Program-made: the position numbers and the translations under genes
The notes under the pieces: model-generated
What the model saw: only the letters and a program-made list of their open reading frames with translations
What the model was told of the DNA's origin: nothing
Database searches by the model: none
Shown: in pieces, positions 1-22,804 of the stretch
How positions within the stretch are numbered: position 1 is the first letter of the stretch
Layout of the letters: each line of letters opens with the position of its first letter
Source of the DNA: an uncultured virus (IMG/VR IMGVR_UViG_3300037962_000140)
Taxonomy: Duplodnaviria > Heunggongvirae > Uroviricota > Caudoviricetes
Length of the DNA stretch: 64,000 nt
IMG/VR virus record: IMGVR_UViG_3300037962_000140
Location: 1 to 64,000 of that record
Strand: one strand, 5' to 3'

Positions 1-62
1 TCTCGAACCATCCTTTTCTTGGCCTTAGCTATTGTACGTTCAGCTATAAATGCATTGTTCAT
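1..62 (-). CDS. N-terminal fragment of a gene running off the window (MNNAFIAERTIAKAKKRMVR...), possibly the VWA/metallopeptidase partner of the AAA ATPase
   Basis: AGGGG RBS then ATG at 62 just after the upstream stop; product guessed from context only. Confidence 0.4.
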   Translation of the reverse strand, partial: MNNAFIAERTIAKAKKRMVR

Positions 63-71
63 ATCGCCCCC

Positions 72-965
72 TTAATCGTAGAAGCCAGAGAGAGAATCGA
101 CGATGTTTTTAGCATCCTTGATTGTCTCTTTGCGTTTGTCTTCAGATTCTCTTAGCTCATCAGGGTTCGCGTTTCTGAGTTTGCTAAGGATCTTGTTGGC
201 GGCAATATCGAGCTGATCGTCACCGAATATATTCAGATCGGGCAGTATGTCGGCCAGCTCTTTAACATTCGCTATCGTGGAGTTGGCAAACTTAGAAGGT
301 TTAGTCGCCCCCTCTTCGATCACGCCGTGACGCTCCAGACCCTCGATCATTGTCTCCAACACGCCCACAACCCTATCTCGGACTTTGTCTTGAGCGACTT
401 TGACCTTTCGAGTGATCTCTTCTTCGGCATCTTCCTTGATCTTTTTGATTTTAGAATTGGGAAGCTTTACTCGAATATCATTTGAGTCGTCTATATTCTT
501 GAGCTTGTATGTGATCGAGTATGCGTCAGCAATGTCATCCACACTGGGGTAGAAGTCTGGATCGAACTTATCGCCCAGCCTACTCTCTAGCTCCTTAAGC
601 TTGGTTGGCCATTCTTGTTTAAGCTCACGCTCAAGATCAATTAGGTGATCCTGATACTCTTCAATTTTCCGCTCGACTTTGTCGAGAATGTCAGCGGTCA
701 CTAAATGCTCCCCCTCAGTCCAAGGTAGAAGCATCTTTCTAACCACGTTGTTTCCGACCCGACCTATCGTTTTGTCGAGGGCCTTGATTACCGGCACGTC
801 AGCCATGTTCTGATGCACAGAAAAAGCCTTGTGATCTGGGTTACCATCCTTGTCGAAAACATTGTGCTGGATAGCGAGTGCAGTTGCAGCTTCCTTGTCG
901 TTCTTGGAATGCTGCCACTTCGTACACTTGATTTTAATGAGCAATGCGCTCTCTTGTATTGTCAC
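72..965 (-). CDS. DUF3150-like helical phage protein
   Basis: 297 aa coiled-coil-rich ORF with AACTAGGAG RBS, directly downstream of a MoxR-type ATPase as is typical for this family. Confidence 0.55.
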   Translation of the reverse strand: MTIQESALLIKIKCTKWQHSKNDKEAATALAIQHNVFDKDGNPDHKAFSVHQNMADVPVIKALDKTIGRVGNNVVRKMLLPWTEGEHLVTADILDKVERKIEEYQDHLIDLERELKQEWPTKLKELESRLGDKFDPDFYPSVDDIADAYSITYKLKNIDDSNDIRVKLPNSKIKKIKEDAEEEITRKVKVAQDKVRDRVVGVLETMIEGLERHGVIEEGATKPSKFANSTIANVKELADILPDLNIFGDDQLDIAANKILSKLRNANPDELRESEDKRKETIKDAKNIVDSLSGFYD

Positions 966-968
966 TTC

Positions 969-2034
969 TTATTCTCCTAGTTGGTTATCAATTTTGAACT
1001 GTATGTACTCCTGGGTTTCTTTGAAATCAGGATCACGGCCTATCGCAAGGGCAAACAGAACCGCTATCAGCTCATCGTCATATTTGGCAAGCCACTTGAT
1101 AGCATTGCCGATGTTGGATCTCTCGCACTTTGCTGCAAGCTGAGCGCAAACCGCATAGATCGTGTTGATCTGGGATGGCACTGGCACACTGTCAGGATCG
1201 TCCAAAATCTGAGCAAAGCTTGGAATATCCCTCATTACCTTCAGGAAAGATGAGAACTCTGAGCCTNNNNNNNNNNATCGAGTCGGCCTCGATCTTCTTA
1301 GGTAGACCACACTTGATGATCTCAGAAACGAACTCCCACGAGCGTGGAGTAGCTACTGCTATGTGTCCCTTAGGGGCACCCCCGTCGAGGTACTCGTGGA
1401 GCAGTCCTCCATTCTCAGAGCTTGGTGCCCCTCGAAACTGAATGAATGCGATCACCTCGTGAGCCACGCCATTTTGGTATGCCCACTCAGTCCACTCAGA
1501 CACACTAGGCACCACGTTAAAGTGCGGAGCAAAGCGATTCATCAGGGCTGGATCCACGCGACCATGTACCCCAGCACCATCTTCAGGACGATTAGAGGCG
1601 GCTACTATGTGCCAGCCTTTGGGGTGTATGTACGAGCCTAATCTACCGTCAGTCATTAGCTGGTAGAGACTAGCCTGTACTGAAGCCATCCCCAGCAATA
1701 TCTCATCAATGAAGGTGATACCGAACTCACCGTCCCTCTCGACGTTAGGTAGCCAGCGTGGGGGAGCAAAATCGGTCTCATGGTCAATGATCTCTGGAAC
1801 CCCTCGTGTATCGACTGCGTCGATCTGTGAGGTTCTAAGGTCTAGAAGGCCCCATTGGTTGCCAGTGGTCTCAGAGAGAGAAGCCACTATCGACTTAACG
1901 ATAGCGGATTTTGCCACTCCATAGGCACCCCACAAAAAAGGATGCAGTTTTGTCCTCGGATCTTCTCTTAAGACAAATGTCTCAATAGCCGTGGCCGCTG
2001 ACTGTGTTGTTACTGTGCTTATGTTAAAAGCCAT
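969..2034 (-). CDS. MoxR-type AAA+ ATPase, interrupted by scaffold gap 1267-1276
   Basis: Walker A variant GAYGVAKS, Walker B FIDE, AASNR sensor, DPALMNRF, TPRSW; ORFs 1192..2040 and 969..1310 join across the N gap; ATG at 2034 follows AGGAG. Confidence 0.8.
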
Positions 2035-2061
2035 ATTCAAACTCCTAGTTATAGTTAGTTA

Positions 2062-2121
2062 TCCAAGACCCCCGATAGGGGGTTTCGAGGCGGGAACTAC
2101 CCGCCCAGCTCATCAGTTGGA
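2062..2121 (-). ncRNA. hammerhead ribozyme, type I
   Basis: UCCAA CUGAUGA G-CU-GGGCGGG UAGUU CCCGCCU-C GAAA CCCCC UAUC GGGGG UC UUGGA: full core, three stems, GUC cleavage triplet. Confidence 0.93.
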
Positions 2122-2128
2122 ATGTCTG

Positions 2129-2377
2129 CTAATCCTCCTTTTTGAAAAAATTATCAATAGTTTCTTCAGTCTTATCGGCCATTACTAACTCTAATTTCAA
2201 CATCAGTTTGATATCGTCGAAAACTTCTTCGCTTATGAACTTGTGTTCAAGAGCCATATTAAGAAGCCTAAGGTCATGGTTAATTTTACTTTTCCAAGTA
2301 GAAAAATCTGATTTGATCTGACCTTCTCGCGATAAAGCGTTTCGGCTAAACACTTCGATATATTCTTCTTCAGTCAT
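2129..2377 (-). CDS. hypothetical early protein
   Basis: 82 aa ORF abutting the upstream gene in the operon. Confidence 0.6.
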   Translation of the reverse strand: MTEEEYIEVFSRNALSREGQIKSDFSTWKSKINHDLRLLNMALEHKFISEEVFDDIKLMLKLELVMADKTEETIDNFFKKED

Positions 2378-2932
2378 CTACTGATCCTCCTTTAGTTCTT
2401 CAATTTGCCTAATCACTGAGTCGATACAATCGATACAGTAGTAGCGGTCACCGATCTCTTCGCCTTGATCGTCGAAAGGCACGTTGCCCTCGAATGAATA
2501 GACCCCACACCGAGCGCAGGGATCACGAGTGGTTTTGTACTCATCATTCGCCCTCTCGATCTCAGACAACAGGTCATCGCCTGGGCCTGGGTTTTTCTGG
2601 ATCTGATCGTGGAGCCTTTCATGCTCGACTATGAACTTAGCCGCTGGATAGTTGCGCTGCTTGAGCAGTTTGCCGATCTGCTCCCCGATGGGAGTCATAG
2701 CGTGAACTTCATCTTCATCATTCAATCTCTTGAATCCGATTCTCTCCATGATGCTCGTGGCCTCATCGCAATAACTGTTAAACCGATCCTGAGAAGCCTC
2801 GGTGTACCGCTCATCGCCGTTCTCTGCGACCTCGGTTATCAGGGGGCCATCCCCGTATTCTTCAGCCAGAATGACTGCCAGATCGGAATAGATCTCTATC
2901 CACTGTTCATCCGACACTATTAAATCGTTCAT
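2378..2932 (-). CDS. hypothetical acidic protein with C-terminal CxxC...CxxC zinc finger
   Basis: CARC and CIDC motifs; GGAGG RBS. Confidence 0.65.
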   Translation of the reverse strand: MNDLIVSDEQWIEIYSDLAVILAEEYGDGPLITEVAENGDERYTEASQDRFNSYCDEATSIMERIGFKRLNDEDEVHAMTPIGEQIGKLLKQRNYPAAKFIVEHERLHDQIQKNPGPGDDLLSEIERANDEYKTTRDPCARCGVYSFEGNVPFDDQGEEIGDRYYCIDCIDSVIRQIEELKEDQ

Positions 2933-2934
2933 AG

Positions 2935-3147
2935 TTAAATGTCCTCCCTGAGTGTGTTGTATGGGCTGACCGCCTCAAGAGCTGCTCTCTTGGGATCTTT
3001 GCCTGTGTTGAATAGATAGATGGCACTATCCCAATTGATGAACTCAGAACGGTAGTCGGCCCTCTGGGCTGCGTCCTGATAGTCGTCTCTGGTCTTGAGT
3101 GCATCGTGATAGCTGGCCATCCATTTGGCCCGATCTCGTTTTCTCAT
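2935..3147 (-). CDS. hypothetical early protein
   Basis: 70 aa ORF with AACTAGGAG RBS. Confidence 0.65.
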   Translation of the reverse strand: MRKRDRAKWMASYHDALKTRDDYQDAAQRADYRSEFINWDSAIYLFNTGKDPKRAALEAVSPYNTLREDI

Positions 3148-3166
3148 TATCCAATTCTCCTAGTTA

Positions 3167-3233
3167 GCGGGTTGTCATCTTCAAGGTGCAAGGTTCCCAG
3201 CCTACGCACGACCCCCAGAGGGGGTTTCGACTA
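3167..3233 (-). ncRNA. hammerhead ribozyme, type II, variant core
   Basis: GUC GAAA CCCCC UCU GGGGG UC GUGCG-U-AGG CUGGGAA CCU UGCAC CUUGAAGAU GAC AACCC; stems intact, core CUUGAAGAU instead of CUGANGA, GGG/CCC loop-tail pseudoknot. Confidence 0.7.
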
Positions 3234-3461
3234 TGCTGCGCGGGTAGCTGGCCCCCTTAGATCAAAACTGATCGAGTATTGATGGTCTCCCAGATCTCTC
3301 TTGAGTATGTACTGCTCGATCACTTCCTGACCCCTAAAGAAACTGTCAGCAAAGTAAGAAAACACCAAGTGATCATTGTGAGAATCTCTGACAGTGATCT
3401 CGCAGAGGTTGTCATCTAGCAGCACGAGTTTGATAAAGAAAAAACGGTAAGGTAATGGCAT
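3231..3461 (-). CDS. hypothetical early protein (MPLPYRFF...)
   Basis: ATG at 3461 overlaps upstream TAA (TAATG) with GGAGG RBS; the listed 3581 start is too long. Confidence 0.6.
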   Translation of the reverse strand: MPLPYRFFFIKLVLLDDNLCEITVRDSHNDHLVFSYFADSFFRGQEVIEQYILKRDLGDHQYSISFDLRGPATRAA

Positions 3462-3673
3462 TAGATGTGTCCTCCAGATATTTTCAGACCCGCTGCGAAG
3501 GAGGCAAAATAAGCTCCCCAGAGGCCCCAGTTGATCGCTGCGATCTCTAGAGTGCTTAGGTCGGTGTTTGCCTCCAGCCATAGGTCAATGACCCCCAGAC
3601 CGGCGGCAGTGACTACGATGCTCATGACTACAAATAGAGTGATAAACGTGAGTGATAAGATTAGAAATTTCAT
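3461..3673 (-). CDS. small membrane protein, two hydrophobic segments
   Basis: 70 aa hydrophobic ORF with AACTAGGAG RBS. Confidence 0.65.
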   Translation of the reverse strand: MKFLILSLTFITLFVVMSIVVTAAGLGVIDLWLEANTDLSTLEIAAINWGLWGAYFASFAAGLKISGGHI

Positions 3674-3696
3674 TTTCAGTTCTCCTAGTTTTAGTT

Positions 3697-3754
3697 TTCC
3701 AAGACCCCCATAAGGGGGTTTCGATCAATCACCAATTGATCTCATCAGTTGGAA
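3697..3754 (-). ncRNA. hammerhead ribozyme, type I
   Basis: UUCCAA CUGAUGA GAUCAAU UGGUG AUUGAUC GAAA CCCCC UUAU GGGGG UC UUGGAA: perfect core and stems. Confidence 0.96.
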
Positions 3755-3755
3755 T

Positions 3756-4109
3756 CTACAAGGCCCTCCTAAATGTGATTAGGCCGTGTTCGTAGTACTT
3801 GACCTCTATCTGGTCTCCCTCGTTAAAGATCTCACCAATGCGCTTCTCGTGGAGATCTATGATGGGCCTGCTTGCAGTCACCGCTCGATCACCGCCCAAG
3901 CTAGGACAAAGCTCAATCGACTCAGGGCCGTAGTAGACCTTGTATGTCTCCCCAGCGTGGAACTGAGCAGCCTCAAGCTTTTTGCCCTCGATCCATATTC
4001 GGTATGCCCTCTTGGTCTTCTTGACCTTGGTTTTTCCAGAGGCTACTGGCTCTACAAAATTAACCACTTCCGACCTTCTATCTTCTAGCTCTTGTTTTAT
4101 CTGATCCAT
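3756..4109 (-). CDS. hypothetical protein, possibly AbrB-like DNA-binding fold
   Basis: ATG at 4109 after AACTAGGAG; RIWIEG..L..A.F..G..Y.V pattern. Confidence 0.6.
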   Translation of the reverse strand: MDQIKQELEDRRSEVVNFVEPVASGKTKVKKTKRAYRIWIEGKKLEAAQFHAGETYKVYYGPESIELCPSLGGDRAVTASRPIIDLHEKRIGEIFNEGDQIEVKYYEHGLITFRRAL

Positions 4110-4127
4110 TTTCAATTCTCCTAGTTG

Positions 4128-4191
4128 TGACTTGTCTCATCAGCGATCAAGTAGTCATCTTGGCCGGACTCCCCGAAGGGAGTTTCGACTA
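4128..4191 (-). ncRNA. hammerhead ribozyme, type II, with pseudoknot
   Basis: GUC GAAA CUCCC UUCG GGGAG UC CGGCCAAG AUGACUA CUUGAUCG CUGAUGA GAC AAGUCA; loop UGACU pairs with 3' tail AGUCA. Confidence 0.93.
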
Positions 4192-5142
4192 TTGGTACTG
4201 ACTCTCTAATAACTGACCCAGTGAGGGCCTCTGAGGTGCGCTCTCAGAGTCGATCTTCTTCTCCCACTCATCTATCGAGAGAAGCTCACCGTCTACCTTG
4301 GCGGTGAATAGACGCGCTCCCTTGGCCCATGAGTCGTGTTGCCATTGGCCGTCAGGTGCCCTCCATCCGATCTTACAATGATCGCCTACATCACCTTTGC
4401 CCTCGGTCACTACTGCACTCCCAGTTTTCCATTCTTTGGGTCTGGTCAAGCTGAGTGGCTTGCCTGCATCTATCCAAGCCTGATGCTTTCGAGGTGACTC
4501 CTCTTGGAACCGCTCCTCGACCAGCTTTATGAGATCCCATCTCTGAGGATCCTGTCTGGCCTCGTAGATCTCTTCTTTACTCAGGAAAGGACAGAATACG
4601 CATGATGACTTAGGCACATCAAAGTCATATGACTTGAGAAGCTCGATACAGCTCTCTCTGGTCTCATCCAAATCGATAAGCGGGTACTCATACTTGGCCT
4701 TGTCATTCTTAGGCTTGGTAAATCGCTTCTTACGGTAAAGCTCATTCGCCTCTATGCCGATTAGGTAGGTGATCTCTGAGTCTGGGTATGTCTGCTTGGC
4801 CCACTTGGCGATCACCTCACCTTTAAACTTGGCTGAGCAAACATGGGAGCCGCCGATCATCACTGGGACGATCCCAAGTCTGGTGACCCACTGGGTTATG
4901 GTCTCGCCTTCTTTGCTGACGATATCGAAGGGTAGATCGTGTTCTTCGCAGAGCTTCTGAAAACGCCTGACATTAGCGTATGTCTCGGCAGATTCAGCTC
5001 CAGTATCACTAAAGACAACATGGTCTATAGCTAGATCCTCATGGTACAAATGTATCAGTAGGATCGCGCTTGAATCCACGCCTCCCCCGAAAGACAAGAT
5101 CCTCTTTCGAGAGAAGTAGTGGTGGTCTATTTGTTCGTTCAT
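4189..5142 (-). CDS. PAPS reductase-like (PP-loop) protein
   Basis: ILSFGGGVDSSA PP-loop, FSDTGAE, IGIEANE, YPL, SSCVFCPF cysteine motif; ATG at 5142 after AACTAGGAG. Confidence 0.8.
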   Translation of the reverse strand: MNEQIDHHYFSRKRILSFGGGVDSSAILLIHLYHEDLAIDHVVFSDTGAESAETYANVRRFQKLCEEHDLPFDIVSKEGETITQWVTRLGIVPVMIGGSHVCSAKFKGEVIAKWAKQTYPDSEITYLIGIEANELYRKKRFTKPKNDKAKYEYPLIDLDETRESCIELLKSYDFDVPKSSCVFCPFLSKEEIYEARQDPQRWDLIKLVEERFQEESPRKHQAWIDAGKPLSLTRPKEWKTGSAVVTEGKGDVGDHCKIGWRAPDGQWQHDSWAKGARLFTAKVDGELLSIDEWEKKIDSESAPQRPSLGQLLESQYQ

Positions 5143-5207
5143 AATCAGTCTCCTAGTTTGTGTTGGCCTGCTTGTTAGTGAAATCACTTTGCCTTGGGCC
5201 TGAGCGG

Positions 5208-5235
5208 ATTATACTCAATTACGCATTACGGTCAA
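5208..5235 (-). promoter_or_regulatory. sigma70 promoter of the left early operon
   Basis: TTGACC-N16-TATAAT on the minus strand, upstream of the first gene. Confidence 0.7.
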
Positions 5236-5253
5236 CACTATACGCATTACGGT
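5220..5253. repeat. 13-bp direct repeat TACGCATTACGGT x2, operator-like
   Basis: copies at 5220-5232 and 5241-5253; the first overlaps the -35 box. Confidence 0.75.
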
Positions 5254-5325
5254 GTACGGTGCATTCCAGCGGGGATCCTGAGATCGTAGAATCAAAGTCA
5301 GTTAATTATTGATCAGGGAATAGTA

Positions 5326-5802
5326 ATGGCAGGCAAACAAATGAGTCCGAAACGTCTTCATTTCGCAAGGTGCGTTGCCTCAGGGATGACCTATGCAGAT
5401 TCCTATCGTGAGGCTTTTGAGCCTGCTGACTCAACTACCTCTGCAAGCATCCATACACTAGCTTCGAGGCTCATGGCAGAGGTTGAGATTAGGTCAAGGG
5501 TAGACCTGCTGATCAAAGCCAGAGAGCGGGCAGTAGTAGATAAAGCGGTCACAGATCGTGAGAAGGTCACTGATCACTTAAGGGAGGCTCTAGCCGGAGG
5601 AGAGACTGATCAACTAAGGCTAAGGGCTGCTGAGTTGCTAGGTAAAGCTAGTGGTCTATTCAGTACAGAAGTCAACGTGACTACTCAAGAGAGAGACTCC
5701 TCCCAAGTAGCTAGTGAGATCCAAGAGAAGTTAGCTGGATTGCTAGGATCCAAGGAGATCGATCAAGAAGAAGCAGAGTCCGACCACGAGAATGTTCACT
5801 GA
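5326..5802 (+). CDS. terS: terminase small subunit (first copy)
   Basis: N-terminal helical motif (SPKRLHFARCVASG..YADSYREAF), RLRAAELLGK; upstream of TerL. Confidence 0.7.
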   Translation: MAGKQMSPKRLHFARCVASGMTYADSYREAFEPADSTTSASIHTLASRLMAEVEIRSRVDLLIKARERAVVDKAVTDREKVTDHLREALAGGETDQLRLRAAELLGKASGLFSTEVNVTTQERDSSQVASEIQEKLAGLLGSKEIDQEEAESDHENVH

Positions 5803-6203
5803 GGCGTAAACCAGGATGAAAATCCAAGAGGATTTTCACCTGGGGGGCACCCCCCTGAACGCATACGCGCACACATATACATATACATAGTAATCCACTC
5901 AAATAATTACAACTTTTTCTAAAATTACACCTGGGTTTACTTAAGCTCTCCCTTTTTTTCTCAGAAAACACCCTAGGAGTCCCATATGCCCAAAAATTTT
6001 TTTTAAAATTTTCGAGTTATTCTGTTGCTTTCCTTGTCAATACCCTTAATATGCTAAACTGTTAGTTTCAAGTTATGACTTAGTAGTCTACTTAGCTCAG
6101 TCATAACTTATTCTTAGTAGAACAATTAATGCCCTGACGGGCATATAGTTAAATGAACATAACCTAGTGATCACTTAGCTTAGTAGACTACTTAGGGGAA
6201 CCT

Positions 6204-7719
6204 ATGCCCTTAAAAGACCGTATAGATCCAAACCTTTTAAAGAACGTAGAAAACCTTCCTGTATCAGATCAGGAGGAACTTCTTAAGTTAATAGAAGAGC
6301 TGGAGGAGGCTGAAAGAAAAGAAGCCGCCCAAGACTCCTTTATGAACTTTGTGAAGTATGCGTGGCCTGCGTTTATTGAAGGCAGGCACCACAAGATCAT
6401 GGGTAACGCCTTTGATCGTGTTGCATCAGGTGAGTTGAAGCGTTTAATCGTTAATATGCCGCCAAGGCATACTAAATCAGAGTTTGCATCGTATTTATTA
6501 CCGGCATGGTTTTTGGGCAGATTCCCAGAAAAAAAGATNNNNNNNNNNGACCGCCCATACCGCAGAACTCTCCGTTGGATTTGGTAGAAAGGTTCGTAAC
6601 CTAGTAGATAGTGATGATTTCAAGAAGGTATTTTCTAAAGTTGCCTTAAGGGCCGACTCCAAGGCAGCAGGCCGTTGGAGTACCAATGAAGGTGGTGAAT
6701 ACTTCGCTATCGGTGTTGGTGGTGCTGTAACAGGAAAAGGTGCAGATCTCCTAATTATCGACGACCCTCACAGCGAGCAAGAAGGTCAAAGCGCAGACCC
6801 GTCAGTTTTTGACAAGGTCTATGAATGGTACACATCCGGCCCTAGGCAGCGTTTACAGCCAGGTGGAGCTATCGTTGTGGTGATGACACGATGGCATAAG
6901 CGTGATTTGACGGGACAGATACTTAAATCATCACTACAAAGATCCGGCACAGATGAGTGGGAGCTGATCGAGTTTCCGGCAATTATGCCCTCAGGGAACC
7001 CCTTGTGGCCTGAGTTCTGGCCAAAAGAGGAATTGGAGTCGTTGAGAAACGAACTTCCTTCCCCTAAATGGAATGCCCAGTACCAGCAGAATCCTACCTC
7101 AGAAGAGGGCGCACTGGTTAAAAGGGAATGGTGGCGTGAATGGGAGGAGGATCGGCCACCCCCTTGTGAGTTCATTATACAGTCCTGGGATACAGCATTT
7201 TTAAAGACCCAGCGTTCAGACTACTCAGCCTGTACAACGTGGGGTGTGTTCTACAAGACAGATGATGAGGGCCTTCAACAGCCTAATATCATACTAATGG
7301 ATTCATTTAAGGAGCGTCTTGAGTTCCCAGAACTTAAGAAAAAAGCCTATGAATACTGGTCTGAGTGGCAACCTGATGCCTTTGTGGTGGAGGCTAAAGC
7401 CGCTGGGACACCGTTGATATTTGAATTAAGGGCGATGGGTATCCCTGTAAGCGAATACACGCCTTCGAGGGGAAACGACAAAATAGCCCGTGTGAATGCC
7501 GTTGCAGATCTATTTGCATCAGGGATAGTATGGGCACCCAAACTGCGCTATGCAGAGGAAGTGATCGAGGAATTTGCGGCATTTCCTGCCGGAGAGCATG
7601 ACGATCTGGTGGATTCATCCACACAGGCGCTGCTTAGATTCAGGCAGGGAGGCTTTTTGAAGCTAAACTCTGACGAAGAGGACGAGCCTTTTTACCAGAG
7701 AAAAGCAAACTACTACTAG
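6204..7719 (+). CDS. terL: terminase large subunit, split by scaffold gap 6539-6548
   Basis: MPPRHTKSE Walker A variant, LLIIDDP Walker B, QSWDTA and HDDLVDS nuclease motifs. Confidence 0.95.
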
Positions 7720-11688: not shown

Positions 11689-11783
11689 CGACTCTAGGCG
11701 TTTTCCTAGTGCAGCGACTTCAGACGCTAATCTGATGCAACGACTTTGGGCGTTTACCCNNNNNNNNNNGTTTACCCAATGCA
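11688..11783 (+). repeat. tandem array of 26-nt covarying hairpin units upstream of groES
   Basis: RCGACT-stem5-CGYTWW-stem5-TGCA x3, stems CTAGG/CCTAG, TCAGA/TCTGA, TTGGG/CCCAA. Confidence 0.8.
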
Positions 11784-14324: not shown

Positions 14325-15263
14325 ATGGCTATTTCTAGAGCGCAAATGCTTAAAGAACTCCTGCCTGGGCTTAATGCCTTGTTTGGTTTGGAGTATGAAA
14401 AATACGAAGACGAGCATGATCTCATTTATGAGACCGAAAGCTCCGAGCGTAGCTTTGAAGAGGAAGTAAAGTTGAGTGGCTTTGGTGCTGCTCCTGTAAA
14501 AAACGAAGGTTCTGCAATCTCTTATGATTCAGCGCAAGAGTCTTTTACTGCACGATACAACCACGAAACTATTGCTATGGGATTCTCAATCACGGAAGAA
14601 GCGATGGAAGATAATTTGTATGACTCACTGTCTGCACGTTATACCAAGGCTCTTGCCCGTGCTATGGCGTATACCAAGCAAGTTAAGGCGGTTAATCCTC
14701 TTAACAACGGTTTCACTAATTCATTTCAGTCTGGTGATGGGGTTAACCTGTTTACCGCTTCTGGTGATGGTGTTACTGGTGGTGACGGTCACCCGCTAGT
14801 TAATGGCGGCAAAAATAGTAACCGTCCTTCTACAGCGGCAGACCTGAACGAAACATCTTTAGAGAATGCAATTATTGATATTGCTGCATTTACTGATGAG
14901 CGTGGTTTGTTGATCGCTGCTAGACCTCGACGCTTAATTGTTCCTCCCGCTTTAATGTTTACAGCAGATCGTCTGCTTGAAACAGCGCAGCGTGTGGGCA
15001 CAGCAGACAATGATCTTAACGCAATACGCAATATGGGAGCGATCCCTGAGGGTTATGCTGTTAATCACTATCTGACTGACAGCAATGCGTTTTTCATCAT
15101 TACTGATGTTCCTAACGGTATGAAGCACTTCAACCGTACACCATTGGAAACATCAATGGATGGAGACTTTGATACTGGTAACGTGAGATACAAATCAAGG
15201 GAGCGATACTCTTTTGGAGTAAGTGACCCACTTGGAATTTACGGATCACCAGGATCTAGCTAA
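14325..15263 (+). CDS. major capsid protein
   Basis: MAISRAQMLKELLPGLNALFGLEY N-terminus, LIVPPAL, RERYSFG; followed by a terminator. Confidence 0.9.
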   Translation: MAISRAQMLKELLPGLNALFGLEYEKYEDEHDLIYETESSERSFEEEVKLSGFGAAPVKNEGSAISYDSAQESFTARYNHETIAMGFSITEEAMEDNLYDSLSARYTKALARAMAYTKQVKAVNPLNNGFTNSFQSGDGVNLFTASGDGVTGGDGHPLVNGGKNSNRPSTAADLNETSLENAIIDIAAFTDERGLLIAARPRRLIVPPALMFTADRLLETAQRVGTADNDLNAIRNMGAIPEGYAVNHYLTDSNAFFIITDVPNGMKHFNRTPLETSMDGDFDTGNVRYKSRERYSFGVSDPLGIYGSPGSS

Positions 15264-15270
15264 CGGATTT

Positions 15271-15298
15271 GGGGGCGCTTTGCGCCCCCTTTTCTTTT
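15271..15298 (+). terminator. rho-independent terminator
   Basis: GGGGGCGC TTT GCGCCCCC followed by TTTTCTTTT. Confidence 0.9.
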
Positions 15299-15353
15299 CC
15301 TGACTAATTGTTTCACATGGAACATTAGACACTAGCCAAGACAGGAGACATAC

Positions 15354-15863
15354 ATGGCTAATACTACTTTCACAGGTGCTGTGCGATCTGAAAGCACCTT
15401 TAAAACTGTAAGCAAGAATTCAACTACTGGCGCTATTACTGAGGTTACTACTGTTGGTGACGGCCCTGTCAGCCTTTCTGACGGAGATGTAACGCTTACC
15501 AATGCAACTCATAGCGGCAGAATCTTACTTGTCCCAGATGGTAGTCAAGATAACACCTACACTTTACCAGCGCCTATTGCTGGATCTGTATTTAGGTTTA
15601 TTTATGCTGGCGCAGCCGCTGATGCTACTGATGCAATTATTGTTACTCCCGGCAATAGCAATTTTTATATTGGCGGTGTGACCTTATTGGATACAGATGG
15701 TGACTCAATCAGTAGTGTTTTTTCTAATGGAAGCTCAAACAGCAGTATTCAATTAAATGTTCCTGCGGGATTTGATGTGACTATAGTTGGTTTAAATACT
15801 ACCAATTATCAAATCTTTGGAAATGTTACGAGTACCACTGCTCCTGCATTTGCTGATCAATAA
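15354..15863 (+). CDS. virion structural protein
   Basis: 169 aa Thr/Ser/Gly-rich, AGGAG RBS. Confidence 0.7.
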   Translation: MANTTFTGAVRSESTFKTVSKNSTTGAITEVTTVGDGPVSLSDGDVTLTNATHSGRILLVPDGSQDNTYTLPAPIAGSVFRFIYAGAAADATDAIIVTPGNSNFYIGGVTLLDTDGDSISSVFSNGSSNSSIQLNVPAGFDVTIVGLNTTNYQIFGNVTSTTAPAFADQ

Positions 15864-20086: not shown

Positions 20087-22804
20087 ATGGCAACTTACGT
20101 TAATGACCTAAGATTAAAAGAGATCGCCACTGGCGATGAATCGGGAACTTGGGGTACGAGTACAAATACGAATTTAGAGCTGATCGCAGAAAAATTTGGA
20201 ACAGGATCGGAAGCTCTTTCAGACGCTAGTACAGCAACCATTACGATGGCTGACGGTGCTAGTGATGCATTTCGCTCTTTAGCCCTTACTCTCACAGGCT
20301 CTCTTTCCCAGGCTTGTACAGTCACGTTAGCTCCAAATACTCTTTCTAACGTATGGGTAGTTCAGAACTCCGCTGGTGACACGGTTACACTAAGCCAAGG
20401 AACAGGCGCAAATGTGGTCATACCAAACGGCGGTATCCGAATGGTTGCCACTGATGGTGCTGGTTCAGGTGCAGCGGTTACAGATGTACTCGACGTACTA
20501 GGCGGCACAGGCAACGTAGGTTTGGGTAGCGGTGCGTTTGGTACAGGGCTTACCACAGGCACAGATAATGTAGCTATAGGCGAGAATGCTGGCGATGCCC
20601 TAACCACTGGGTCTGATAATACTTTGATTGGAGACAATGCGNNNNNNNNNNAAGCACTTAAAGTATTAAATGCTGGTACGGATGGTTATAACGTAGCTAT
20701 TGGTTACCAAGCTGGCGCATCAATGACTACGGGTACGTCAAATACTTTGATCGGTGGAGTTTCTGGAGACGTTATAACAACAGGATCGAACAATGTTGGT
20801 ATCGGAATTAATACGTTAGGCGTTCTTACAACTGGGAGCGAAAATATAGCCATCGGCACTGCTGCTTTAGATGCAGCTACTACCGCAGATGCTAACATAG
20901 CTATTGGACATGGTGCTTTAGGTGCTAACACTTCAGGCACTAAAAATACTTCAGTTGGGCATAGTGCATTAGATGCCAACACCACCGCAGATAACAACAC
21001 AGCAGTTGGGCATAGTGCTTTAGGGGCCAACACTACAGGCGCGGGATCAACCGCTGTTGGAATGAGGGCATTAACTGCTAACAGCACCGGAAGTAATAAT
21101 GTTGCCGTGGGTAAAGACTCTTTGTACGCTAATACCACTGGGTCTAATAATGTTGCAGTAGGGCTTAGTGCATTACAAAACAATACTACAGGTGAAGTTA
21201 ATTCGGCTTTTGGTACAACCGCGTTATTTACAAACACCACTGGCTATGGAAACACAGCAGTGGGCAAAAATGCTTTATATACCAACAATGGAAACAACAA
21301 CACGGCTGTTGGACATGAAGCACTAGAATTAACTTCTACTGGTAGTGAGAATACCGCAGTAGGTAGAGAAGCATTAGAAGAAAACACTACAGGAAATTAC
21401 AACACGGCTGTTGGCTATAGAGCGGCAGATTCTGTCACTACTGGAACCTACAATATAGCTATGGGCCGAAGAGCACTAGATTCTGTAACAACAAGCTCTT
21501 TTAGCGTTGCAGTCGGAGCAAGTGCTTTAGAAAACAGTACAGCGGCGGGAGCAACAGCTGTTGGACACGCAGCTTTGGCCGCGAATACTTCTGGCCTTTA
21601 TCCAACGGCTTTCGGCTTTGAAGCATTAAAGGCAAATACTACGGGCGAAGGCAACTTGGCCTTCGGATACGAGGCCGGTCACGATATAACTACAGGGAGT
21701 ACGAATCTAGCCATCGGATTCAGGGCGTTGGATGGAAACAGTACAGGTGGTTCTAATATAGCCATCGGAAACAATGCTCTAGGAAGCGCGAATAATTTTA
21801 ATCACAACATGGGAATTGGACTCCAAGCGGGTATTTCGATGGCAACTGGCACACAGAACATTTTCATCGGAAATTACGCAGGTGATGGAGCTACGGCTGG
21901 AAATAACTCAGTCGCTATCGGATATGAAGCGTTTACTGGAGCATCCACGACAGGCGGCGAACACGTTGCGATTGGGGTAGGGGCATCTTCAGCTATAACC
22001 ACGGCTACTCAAACAGTGGTCATAGGAAAATCTGCGGGTGACGCAATAACCACATCAAGTTCTTGTACAATTGTTGGCGCACTTGCTGGAAGCTCTCACG
22101 CAACTGGCGGGGGTGTAACTGCAATTGGTTTCGAGGCTGGTGCAGTTAATACGAACAGTGGCAACACGTTTATTGGATCAGAGGCGGGAGAATTAAATTC
22201 TACAGGGTATAACAACACGTTTCTTGGAAACGATGCAGGAGACATCGTAACTACTGGTTATCTTAATACCACGCTTGGAATAAATTGTAATCCAAGTGCG
22301 GCTGACGGTTATGGTCAAATTGTTGTTGGCGCAGATTTAGATGGAATAGGTAATAATTATTTTACTTTAGGGCGCAATCCTGAAGGTCAAGTTTATAACC
22401 AATATTCTGCTAATGCTTCTTGGACTAGGGCTTCTGATGTCAGGCTTAAAAAAGAAATAGCTGATAACACAGATTGTGGACTAGACTTTATTAACGATTT
22501 GCGTCCAGTAACTTTTAAGTGGAAAGCTCCCTCAGAAGTTGATTCGGATATGCCAACTTATGATCCTGATAAAACTGAACATAGTTACACATCAAAGATG
22601 TATGGGCTGATTGCTCAAGAAGTTAAAGCTGCTTTGGATAAACATAACATTACAGATTTTGGAGGATGGCATGAAACTCCAACTGACAAAGTTCAAGGCG
22701 TATCGCAAGAGATGTTTATTCATCCTTTAATTAAAGCGGTGCAAGAACTTTCTGCTGAAGTTAATACATTGAAGTCGGAAATAGCTGCACTCAAAGGAGG
22801 CTAG
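20087..22804 (+). CDS. tail fibre with NTAVGxxAL repeats and C-terminal peptidase S74 chaperone domain (contains gap 20642-20651)
   Basis: many N.A.G..AL repeats; SDVRLKKEI, LRPVTFKW, GLIAQEV, LIKAVQEL. Confidence 0.88.
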   Translation: MATYVNDLRLKEIATGDESGTWGTSTNTNLELIAEKFGTGSEALSDASTATITMADGASDAFRSLALTLTGSLSQACTVTLAPNTLSNVWVVQNSAGDTVTLSQGTGANVVIPNGGIRMVATDGAGSGAAVTDVLDVLGGTGNVGLGSGAFGTGLTTGTDNVAIGENAGDALTTGSDNTLIGDNAXXXXALKVLNAGTDGYNVAIGYQAGASMTTGTSNTLIGGVSGDVITTGSNNVGIGINTLGVLTTGSENIAIGTAALDAATTADANIAIGHGALGANTSGTKNTSVGHSALDANTTADNNTAVGHSALGANTTGAGSTAVGMRALTANSTGSNNVAVGKDSLYANTTGSNNVAVGLSALQNNTTGEVNSAFGTTALFTNTTGYGNTAVGKNALYTNNGNNNTAVGHEALELTSTGSENTAVGREALEENTTGNYNTAVGYRAADSVTTGTYNIAMGRRALDSVTTSSFSVAVGASALENSTAAGATAVGHAALAANTSGLYPTAFGFEALKANTTGEGNLAFGYEAGHDITTGSTNLAIGFRALDGNSTGGSNIAIGNNALGSANNFNHNMGIGLQAGISMATGTQNIFIGNYAGDGATAGNNSVAIGYEAFTGASTTGGEHVAIGVGASSAITTATQTVVIGKSAGDAITTSSSCTIVGALAGSSHATGGGVTAIGFEAGAVNTNSGNTFIGSEAGELNSTGYNNTFLGNDAGDIVTTGYLNTTLGINCNPSAADGYGQIVVGADLDGIGNNYFTLGRNPEGQVYNQYSANASWTRASDVRLKKEIADNTDCGLDFINDLRPVTFKWKAPSEVDSDMPTYDPDKTEHSYTSKMYGLIAQEVKAALDKHNITDFGGWHETPTDKVQGVSQEMFIHPLIKAVQELSAEVNTLKSEIAALKGG

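Follow-up and report, generated by a model that had tools for sequence, protein, structure and literature searches.

The first 64,000 bases (hereafter the window) of an 81,920-base IMG/VR record from an uncultured marine phage (IMGVR_UViG_3300037962_000140) contain a minus-strand operon, running from approximately position 5142 to the start of the record, whose genes are separated by four elements resembling hammerhead ribozymes. Between 5142 and 72 only four gaps exceed 2 bases (79, 82, 83 and 94 bases), and every one of them is occupied by such an element on the minus strand. The whole array fits into 2.1 kb and divides five blocks of genes. The original prediction for this locus had assigned a hammerhead to every sizeable spacer of the operon, and its places, strand and types were recovered here, although the copy at 3231-3166 does not contain the CUGAUGA sequence. 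From the anatomy and comparisons described below, we consider it reasonably likely that the four elements are hammerheads of the kind found between the genes of phages and prophages, and that they cut the operon transcript, the third doing so weakly or not at all.

The block furthest upstream consists of a single gene (4189-5142) for a 317-amino-acid (aa) PAPS-reductase-like protein, which matches phrog_424 (E 2.3e-26) and, at 17.1 bits, falls below the cut-off of 22.5 for the Pfam family PAPS_reduct. Hammerhead 1 separates it from a 117-aa gene (3756-4109), whose ribosome-binding site (RBS), AACUAGGAG, lies at 4126-4118. Beyond hammerhead 2 comes a gene for a 70-aa membrane-like protein (3461-3673), whose stop overlaps the start of the next gene, for a protein of 76 aa (3231-3461), and beyond hammerhead 3 follow three tightly packed or abutting genes of 70 aa (2935-3147), 184 aa (2378-2932) and 82 aa (2129-2377); no family match was obtained for any gene in these three blocks. 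Downstream of hammerhead 4 lie a gene for a MoxR-like AAA_5 ATPase (969-2034; phrog_1297, E 6.8e-43) and a 297-aa gene (72-965), which has no ribozyme and whose RBS, at 982, is inside the end of the ATPase gene. All of these genes are on the minus strand. A masked run of N at 1267-1276 is the sole reason why the ATPase frame appears broken in the window; in contig L017, which is identical to the window and unmasked, it is one continuous open reading frame of 361 aa.

The core of a hammerhead was defined as a CUGANGA strand, a GAAA strand and a cleavage triplet ending in H after U16.1. This core is complete in the elements at 4189-4126, 3754-3697 and 2122-2061 and is interrupted in that at 3231-3166 by insertions in the CUGANGA strand; three helices, the A15.1-U16.1 pair and the 10.1-11.1 pair are present in all four. 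Each copy also has the tertiary contact appropriate to its topology, i.e. a pseudoknot between loop II and the tail in type I, and between loop I and a tail behind stem II in type II. The cleavage sites that had been predicted (4167/4166, 3703/3702, 3210/3209 and 2067/2066) coincide with the C17 positions of hammerheads 1 to 4 (4167, 3703, 3210 and 2067, respectively), and the upstream UAG codons lie where they had been placed, at 4191-4189, 3758-3756, 3233-3231 and 2131-2129.

Hammerhead 1 (type II; 4189-4126 on the minus strand, or from 4191 with the stop codon) has a canonical CUGAUGA at 4143-4137 and GAAA at 4186-4183. Its stem II pairs GUC (4189-4187) with GAC (4136-4134), the G being supplied by the UAG of the first gene, and inspection reveals a pseudoknot between UGACU in loop I (4157-4153) and AGUCA in the tail (4132-4128). 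Hammerhead 2 (type I; 3754-3697, extending to 3692 with its pseudoknot tail) begins 1 base after the stop codon and contains CUGAUGA at 3748-3742; stem I is formed by UUCCAA and UUGGAA, stem II by GAUCAAU and AUUGAUC, and UGGU of loop II pairs with the tail ACUA (3695-3692). Hammerhead 4 (type I; 2122-2061, extending to 2056 with its tail) starts 6 bases after the stop codon, with CUGAUGA at 2116-2110, stem I formed by UCCAA and UUGGA, an internal loop in stem II, and a pseudoknot between UAGUU of loop II and the tail AACUA (2060-2056).

Hammerhead 3 (type II; 3231-3166, or from 3233 with the stop codon) differs in its core, where CUUGAAGAU at 3185-3177 replaces CUGAUGA. The strand reads C-U-U-G-A-A-G-A-U before stem II and so contains two single-base insertions, which alignment to the type II covariance model described below (R2) places within CU-GA and between A9 and G10.1; GAAA and GUC are intact. 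An alternative reading with one four-base bulge, CU[UGAA]GAUGA, was rejected, as it would set a C at position 10.1 opposite a C. Stem II again pairs GUC (3231-3229) with GAC (3176-3174), the G coming from the stop UAG, as had been noted for both type II copies, and by inspection UGGG (3199-3196) can pair with CCCG (3171-3168). A stem II of only 3 pairs is common among phage type II copies. Judged by its core sequence, hammerhead 3 is probably weakened or dead.

The four copies share the pattern CGAAAC-NCCC-loop-GGGN-GUC, which, across all 81,920 bases of the record, occurs four times on the reverse strand and never on the forward strand; the same pattern read backwards, as a control, gave no match on either strand. 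At Rfam gathering thresholds no hammerhead was detected in the window. Hammerhead_1 (RF00163; gathering score 34) gave 27.0 bits on hammerhead 2 and no match with E up to 10 on hammerhead 4, Hammerhead_II (RF02276; gathering score 37) gave 24.7 bits on hammerhead 1 and 16.1 bits (E 0.39) on hammerhead 3, and RAGATH-1-hammerhead (RF03152; threshold 56.3) gave 29.9 and 26.8 bits on the type I copies, the lower value belonging to hammerhead 4. In the Rfam check that had been proposed for this locus, no copy thus attains a gathering score; that score is a threshold for curated models and not a biological criterion, and with all four copies below it standard annotation would miss the entire array. 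We accordingly used two covariance models built from other viral contigs, with this phage excluded, namely R1 (type I, 29 sequences) and R2 (type II, 53 sequences), with E-values computed over both strands of the 64 kb. R2 recovered hammerhead 1 at 59.0 bits (E 1.8e-15) and hammerhead 3 at 34.0 bits (E 6.1e-08), and R1 recovered hammerhead 2 at 65.4 bits (E 1.9e-19) and hammerhead 4 at 43.1 bits (E 7.1e-12). Neither model gave a separate full-length match elsewhere in the 64 kb, the remaining hits being fragments or low-scoring overlaps of the four loci or having E above 0.01; one of them, at 3724-3672 (20.3 bits, E 0.0008), merely overlaps hammerhead 2. An initial, strict descriptor had found two of the four copies, missing 2122-2061 on account of the internal loop in its stem II and 3231-3166 on account of its variant core.

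In addition to the motifs and their conservation, the structure covaries. When 12 related type I copies are compared, the proposed structure pairs 91% of cells, and sliding the partners lowers this to 33-50%; both sides change in 14 of the 24 pairs, and none of 500 shuffles gave a covariation score as high as that observed. For the pseudoknot of loop II with AAC(U/C)A, immediately after stem I, 85% of cells are paired, and one of its pairs occurs as GC in seven copies, GU in three and AU in two. Minimum-energy folding returns the three-way junction for both type I copies (z -3.4 for hammerhead 2 and -2.1 for hammerhead 4).

The sequence AACUAGGAG follows every copy (at 4126, 3690, 3165 and 2050), as had been claimed, and is also present at 5158 and 982, before genes that have no ribozyme; it occurs six times in all, each time on the minus strand and never on the plus strand. 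Because it is found without a ribozyme at these two positions and in the relative L006 (see below), we take it to be the RBS of the operon, and reject both its assignment as part of a ribozyme cassette and the proposal that stop codon, ribozyme and RBS form a single unit. Upstream of the first gene, a sigma-70-like promoter (TTGACC-16-TATAAT, 11 of 12 matches) lies at 5235-5208 on the minus strand. From there to position 253, a consensus scan of the minus strand revealed no further promoter-like site, and positions 1-6300 contain three promoter-like sites, against 7.3 expected from shuffles. The same type of scan found no terminator-like site in any intergenic gap, and few such matches, with poor U-tracts, inside genes; the elements themselves were considered as terminators and rejected, since no U-tract follows their hairpins. 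These results, which derive from a consensus scan only, fit one transcript.

Relatives of the operon were sought with the protein encoded by the first gene, which identified 12 loci in viral contigs, one of which (L005) is identical to the window. Conservation of position in related phages had been proposed as a check in the original prediction. At E up to 0.01, hammerheads are present in four of the 11 non-identical relatives, namely L016 (one of type II), L011 (one of type I), L006 (one of each type) and L014 (four of type I and one of type II). At the same gene junctions, the copies in L011 (35.6 bits against a gathering score of 34) and L016 (44.7 bits against 37) exceed the Rfam gathering scores. 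The type II copy of L016, at the first-gene junction, shows the same kind of pairing between loop I and tail as seen here, and in L014 hammerheads occupy nearly every sizeable gap among the genes that follow the first gene.

The closest comparison is provided by L006, which is 88% identical to the window across an aligned 1.1 kb. Its ortholog of hammerhead 2 retains stems I and III and the core unchanged whilst stem II has been exchanged and nevertheless pairs; its ortholog of hammerhead 3, at 7840-7904 of L006, has a canonical CUGAUGA, together with a double change from C-G to U-A in stem III by which the cleavage triplet becomes AUC. The junction after the first gene carries a type II hammerhead in the window and L016, a type I in L014 and nothing in L006.

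Hammerheads of this kind are widespread in the viral contigs. The exact stem III pattern occurs in more than 130 stretches of viral contigs among the matches listed, and a simple descriptor applied to the fetched loci returned 175 type II and 32 type I rows (not deduplicated and with some overlap), with up to seven copies per locus and strand. A canonical CUGANGA lies near 193 of 231 strong stem III modules, and most of the 38 without one are coding sequence or unrelated hairpins. Loci L048, L082, L018, L040 and L076 each have six to seven type II hammerheads in about 6 kb, every one after a stop-like triplet and before an RBS. A different arrangement, in which two type II copies stand head to tail across a gene-free interval of only about 10 bases, was observed in L018 (minus strand, script positions 962-1025 and 1037-1090), L040, L109 and L135. 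Two type II-like modules in L073 (minus strand) have UUGAUGA or AUGAGGA after stem I, and may be natural core variants (U3 or shortened).

The mechanism that we favour on this basis is one in which the hammerheads probably cut a long operon message into shorter pieces. Host RNA polymerase would start at the 5235-5208 promoter and produce one long minus-strand transcript, in which each ribozyme could fold into three stems around a CUGAUGA/GAAA core, to which type I would add the pseudoknot of loop II with the AACUA after stem I and type II that of loop I with the tail behind stem II. The 2'-OH of C17 would then attack the next phosphate, giving cuts after GUC at 4167, 3703 and 2067; cleavage at 3210 is expected to be weak or absent because of the two bases inserted into that core. 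Each upstream message would retain its stop codon and end in a G+C-rich hairpin with a 2',3'-cyclic phosphate, 21-22 bases past the stop for type II and 53-62 bases past it for type I copies, and each downstream message would begin with a 5'-OH and a leader of 57, 29, 62 or 32 bases (for hammerheads 1 to 4, respectively) carrying the AACUAGGAG RBS. Genes that overlap or abut within a segment would stay on one RNA. In bacterial mRNA decay such ends should be poor substrates for 3' tailing, for exonucleases and for RNases that depend on a 5'-monophosphate, and the segments could therefore differ in stability, such that a likely effect would be to uncouple their stability and translation from one another. 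Self-processing of one transcript into five mRNAs, as originally envisaged, agrees with the anatomy and with three canonical cores backed by relatives; the disrupted core of the third ribozyme means, however, that four RNAs may result rather than five. The motifs, their conservation and their covariation are shown by the sequence; that the genes are co-transcribed, that the RNA is cut in vivo and that expression is thereby altered is inferred.

Several results weigh against this interpretation. No copy attains an Rfam gathering score, and the catalytic core of hammerhead 3 contains two insertions. Thermodynamic folding misses both type II folds (z +0.37 and -0.78), which is expected, given a stem II of 3 pairs and a pseudoknot outside the scope of the program, and the type II folding result lends no support. 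The covariation sets were mostly picked by a descriptor requiring stems I and III, so that these two stems are partly circular evidence and it is stem II, the pseudoknot and the comparison with L006 that constitute independent evidence. Finally, seven of the 11 non-identical relatives show no hammerhead in the DNA fetched, and L006 has no hammerhead 1, the 68-base difference falling precisely in the interval from the first gene's end to the conserved AACUAGGAG; the ribozymes thus look dispensable.

In one alternative, the ribozymes are active but nearly neutral or selfish punctuation, i.e. small modules that come and go, or are exchanged, between stop codon and RBS with little effect on expression of the flanking genes. 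Precise presence or absence of a module between phages that are otherwise 88% identical, the three states of the first-gene junction, the relatives in which none was found and the one copy with a decayed core all point in this direction. Strong purifying and compensatory evolution of the stems and pseudoknots points the other way, as do the hammerheads in nearly every sizeable gap after the first gene of L014 and the many viral contigs with arrays of up to seven copies per 6 kb, which would be hard to keep without benefit; near-neutrality is unlikely in our judgement, though it is the alternative to which we give most weight. A chance resemblance, in which the elements are simply repeated hairpins (terminators or protein-binding sites) that look like hammerheads, would account for the sub-threshold Rfam scores of all four and for the fact that their most conserved part is a simple G+C hairpin. 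It is very hard to reconcile with full cores in the correct order and spacing in three of the four copies, E-values down to 1e-19 from independent models, compensatory changes in all stems and in the pseudoknot, and the lack of a U-tract after the hairpins, and we regard its probability as close to negligible.

Two further possibilities retain active ribozymes and change what cleavage does. Cutting could be coupled to translation, with a terminating ribosome hiding stems II and III of the type II copies and hammerhead 3 acting as a slow, tunable version; cutting would then report whether the upstream gene was being translated. The G of the UAG lies within stem II in both type II copies, and 100 of 174 type II rows from other contigs have a stop-like triplet ending no more than 1 base from stem II, in a crude count that takes any frame and is blind to the reading frame. 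Regulated or slow phage variants are also raised as a possibility by Perreault et al. (PMC3088659). Against this, no ligand or protein partner is evident, placement beside the stop may reflect compact packing, and the type I copies begin 1-6 bases past the stop and cut 53-62 bases downstream of it; both the coupling itself and the reporting role that it implies seem to us improbable. Cleavage might alternatively be followed by ligation, such that the piece of RNA released by hammerheads 2 and 4 (3702 to 2067; about 1.6 kb and five genes) circularises. What might permit this is a fit of UUGGAA-AACUA, the 5' end that hammerhead 2 leaves, to UUCCAA of stem I and UAGUU of loop II in hammerhead 4: by inspection, the chimeric stem I has 6 pairs, vs 5 in native hammerhead 4, the pseudoknot AACUA/UAGUU has 5, the closed RNA would have UUGGAAAACUAAAAC of hammerhead 2 directly after the ...GGGGGUC of hammerhead 4, and the weak core of hammerhead 3, in the middle of the piece, would leave the RNA whole. 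The 5'-OH and cyclic phosphate ends are, moreover, those used by hammerhead reversal or by an RtcB-type ligase, whilst the hammerhead equilibrium favours cleavage. Common descent suffices to explain the shared stem I, as UCCAA/UUGGA occurs in nine of 10 related type I copies from other contigs, and spliced or circular products were sought in arrays by Perreault et al. (PMC3088659), who report finding none; a search-level look at the literature yielded nothing specific on phage hammerhead circular RNAs or on newer surveys of phage arrays. We rate circularisation as very improbable. Similarly doubtful, to a high degree, is the fuller proposal that the five-gene RNA from 3702 to 2067 is closed into a translatable, exonuclease-proof circular mRNA and that the ribozymes constitute exchangeable, quickly tuned punctuation at the RNA level, the latter idea arising from the gain, loss and switching of topology at one junction among close relatives.

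Beyond the array, the record is rated 100% complete by CheckV, has no end repeats, and carries genes for the small and large terminase subunits and a Mu gpT-like capsid gene (14325-15263; Pfam Phage_capsid_4, Mu-like_gpT). The window contains four masked runs of 10 N (1267-1276, 6539-6548, 11760-11769 and 20642-20651), of which those at 1267 and 6539 cause the ATPase and large terminase genes, respectively, to appear split. The only Rfam match above its gathering score in the window is a Mu-gpT-DE RNA at 15298-15356 on the plus strand (49.3 bits), situated between the gpT-like capsid gene and the next gene, whose ATG forms its end. The operon itself continues past the start of the record (window 1-72, minus strand), and in L017 (8987-11216) the continuation encodes a 404-aa DUF2201 protein, a metallopeptidase plus VWA-like protein that follows the MoxR-like ATPase, and then small genes; no further hammerheads were found in this continuation. 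A MoxR-like ATPase and a DUF2201 protein are a familiar gene pair. Searched against viral contigs, the ATPase protein matched only the identical contig, and a search of the GenBank phage collection returned no relatives of the operon and nothing beyond weak matches to the terminase (65-74% identity).

Ribozyme processing of polycistronic phage mRNA is the standard hypothesis for such arrays, proposed already in 2011 (PMC3088659); on sequence grounds it is plausible here also, and the array is a clean, fairly ordinary example that leaves current understanding unchanged. It adds a well-delimited case to a class of phage hammerheads that is large and for the most part escapes standard annotation, and its particular value lies in the matched differences from L006, the change of topology at one junction, the doubly inserted core and the failure of curated models on all four copies. 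Together, the window and L006 supply one junction with and without a ribozyme and one ribozyme with a canonical and a doubly inserted core, and other relatives offer type I vs type II copies after the same gene. Such matched pairs are convenient material for asking whether cleavage alters mRNA stability or protein ratios.

With respect to known families, the copies resemble Rfam Hammerhead_II and Hammerhead_1 in core, three stems and full-length alignment, and differ in scoring below the gathering values. Both type I copies align end to end with RAGATH-1 (RF03152), which describes a type I hammerhead preceded by an AGGAG-containing stretch; however, the upstream hairpin of that model is not formed, the matched 'AGGAG' being coding sequence of the upstream gene, and membership was rejected on the basis of scores of 29.9 and 26.8 against 56.3 bits and the non-standard hairpin pairs. 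Other systems also divide long phage transcripts, or standardise the leaders of genes. The early polycistronic mRNA of T7 is processed by RNase III, and RiboJ is a synthetic ribozyme insulator; the array would share with these the cutting of a long phage transcript between genes and a standardised 5' leader for each gene. Unlike T7 processing, it would involve no host enzyme and would leave 5'-OH and cyclic phosphate ends rather than 5'-phosphate and 3'-OH, so that by analogy it may be said to work like T7 RNase III processing or RiboJ whilst belonging to neither.

The closest precedent is provided by the phage hammerhead arrays first described in 2011 by Perreault et al. (PMC3088659). As set out in that paper, multiple or clustered hammerheads flank genes or short gene blocks in prophages, three arrays cleave in in vitro transcripts of about 2 kb, with in vivo activity for one, and type II copies with pseudoknots, two-pair stems II and natural core variants of low activity occur; the authors proposed that long phage transcripts are thereby divided into mRNAs the length of an operon or a gene. 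A cyPhyRNA-seq study of Desulfovibrio vulgaris (PMC8782182) describes in vivo cleavage, with detection of 2',3'-cyclic phosphate and 5'-OH fragments, for three type II hammerheads, of which one is shown beside genes of phage origin; these have the same topology as the type II copies here, but are single loci at three chromosomal places and not an array in one operon. A 2019 review (PMC6765202) states that the purpose still needs work. The present locus, with its four same-strand hammerheads flanking genes or blocks of genes in a virus record that carries terminase and capsid genes, has the arrangement of a clustered array, and is like those of 2011 in having several hammerheads within a few kb on one strand between phage-origin genes or short blocks, in its mixture of types, its pseudoknots, short stems II and occasional core variants, and in the processing hypothesis that it invites. 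It differs in that the earlier arrays were in prophages of cultured bacteria and were tested in vitro, whereas this one comes from an uncultured marine phage and punctuates an operon of PAPS-reductase-like, MoxR-like ATPase and DUF2201 genes; and it goes beyond them in permitting presence, absence and topology of the ribozymes to be compared between close relatives.

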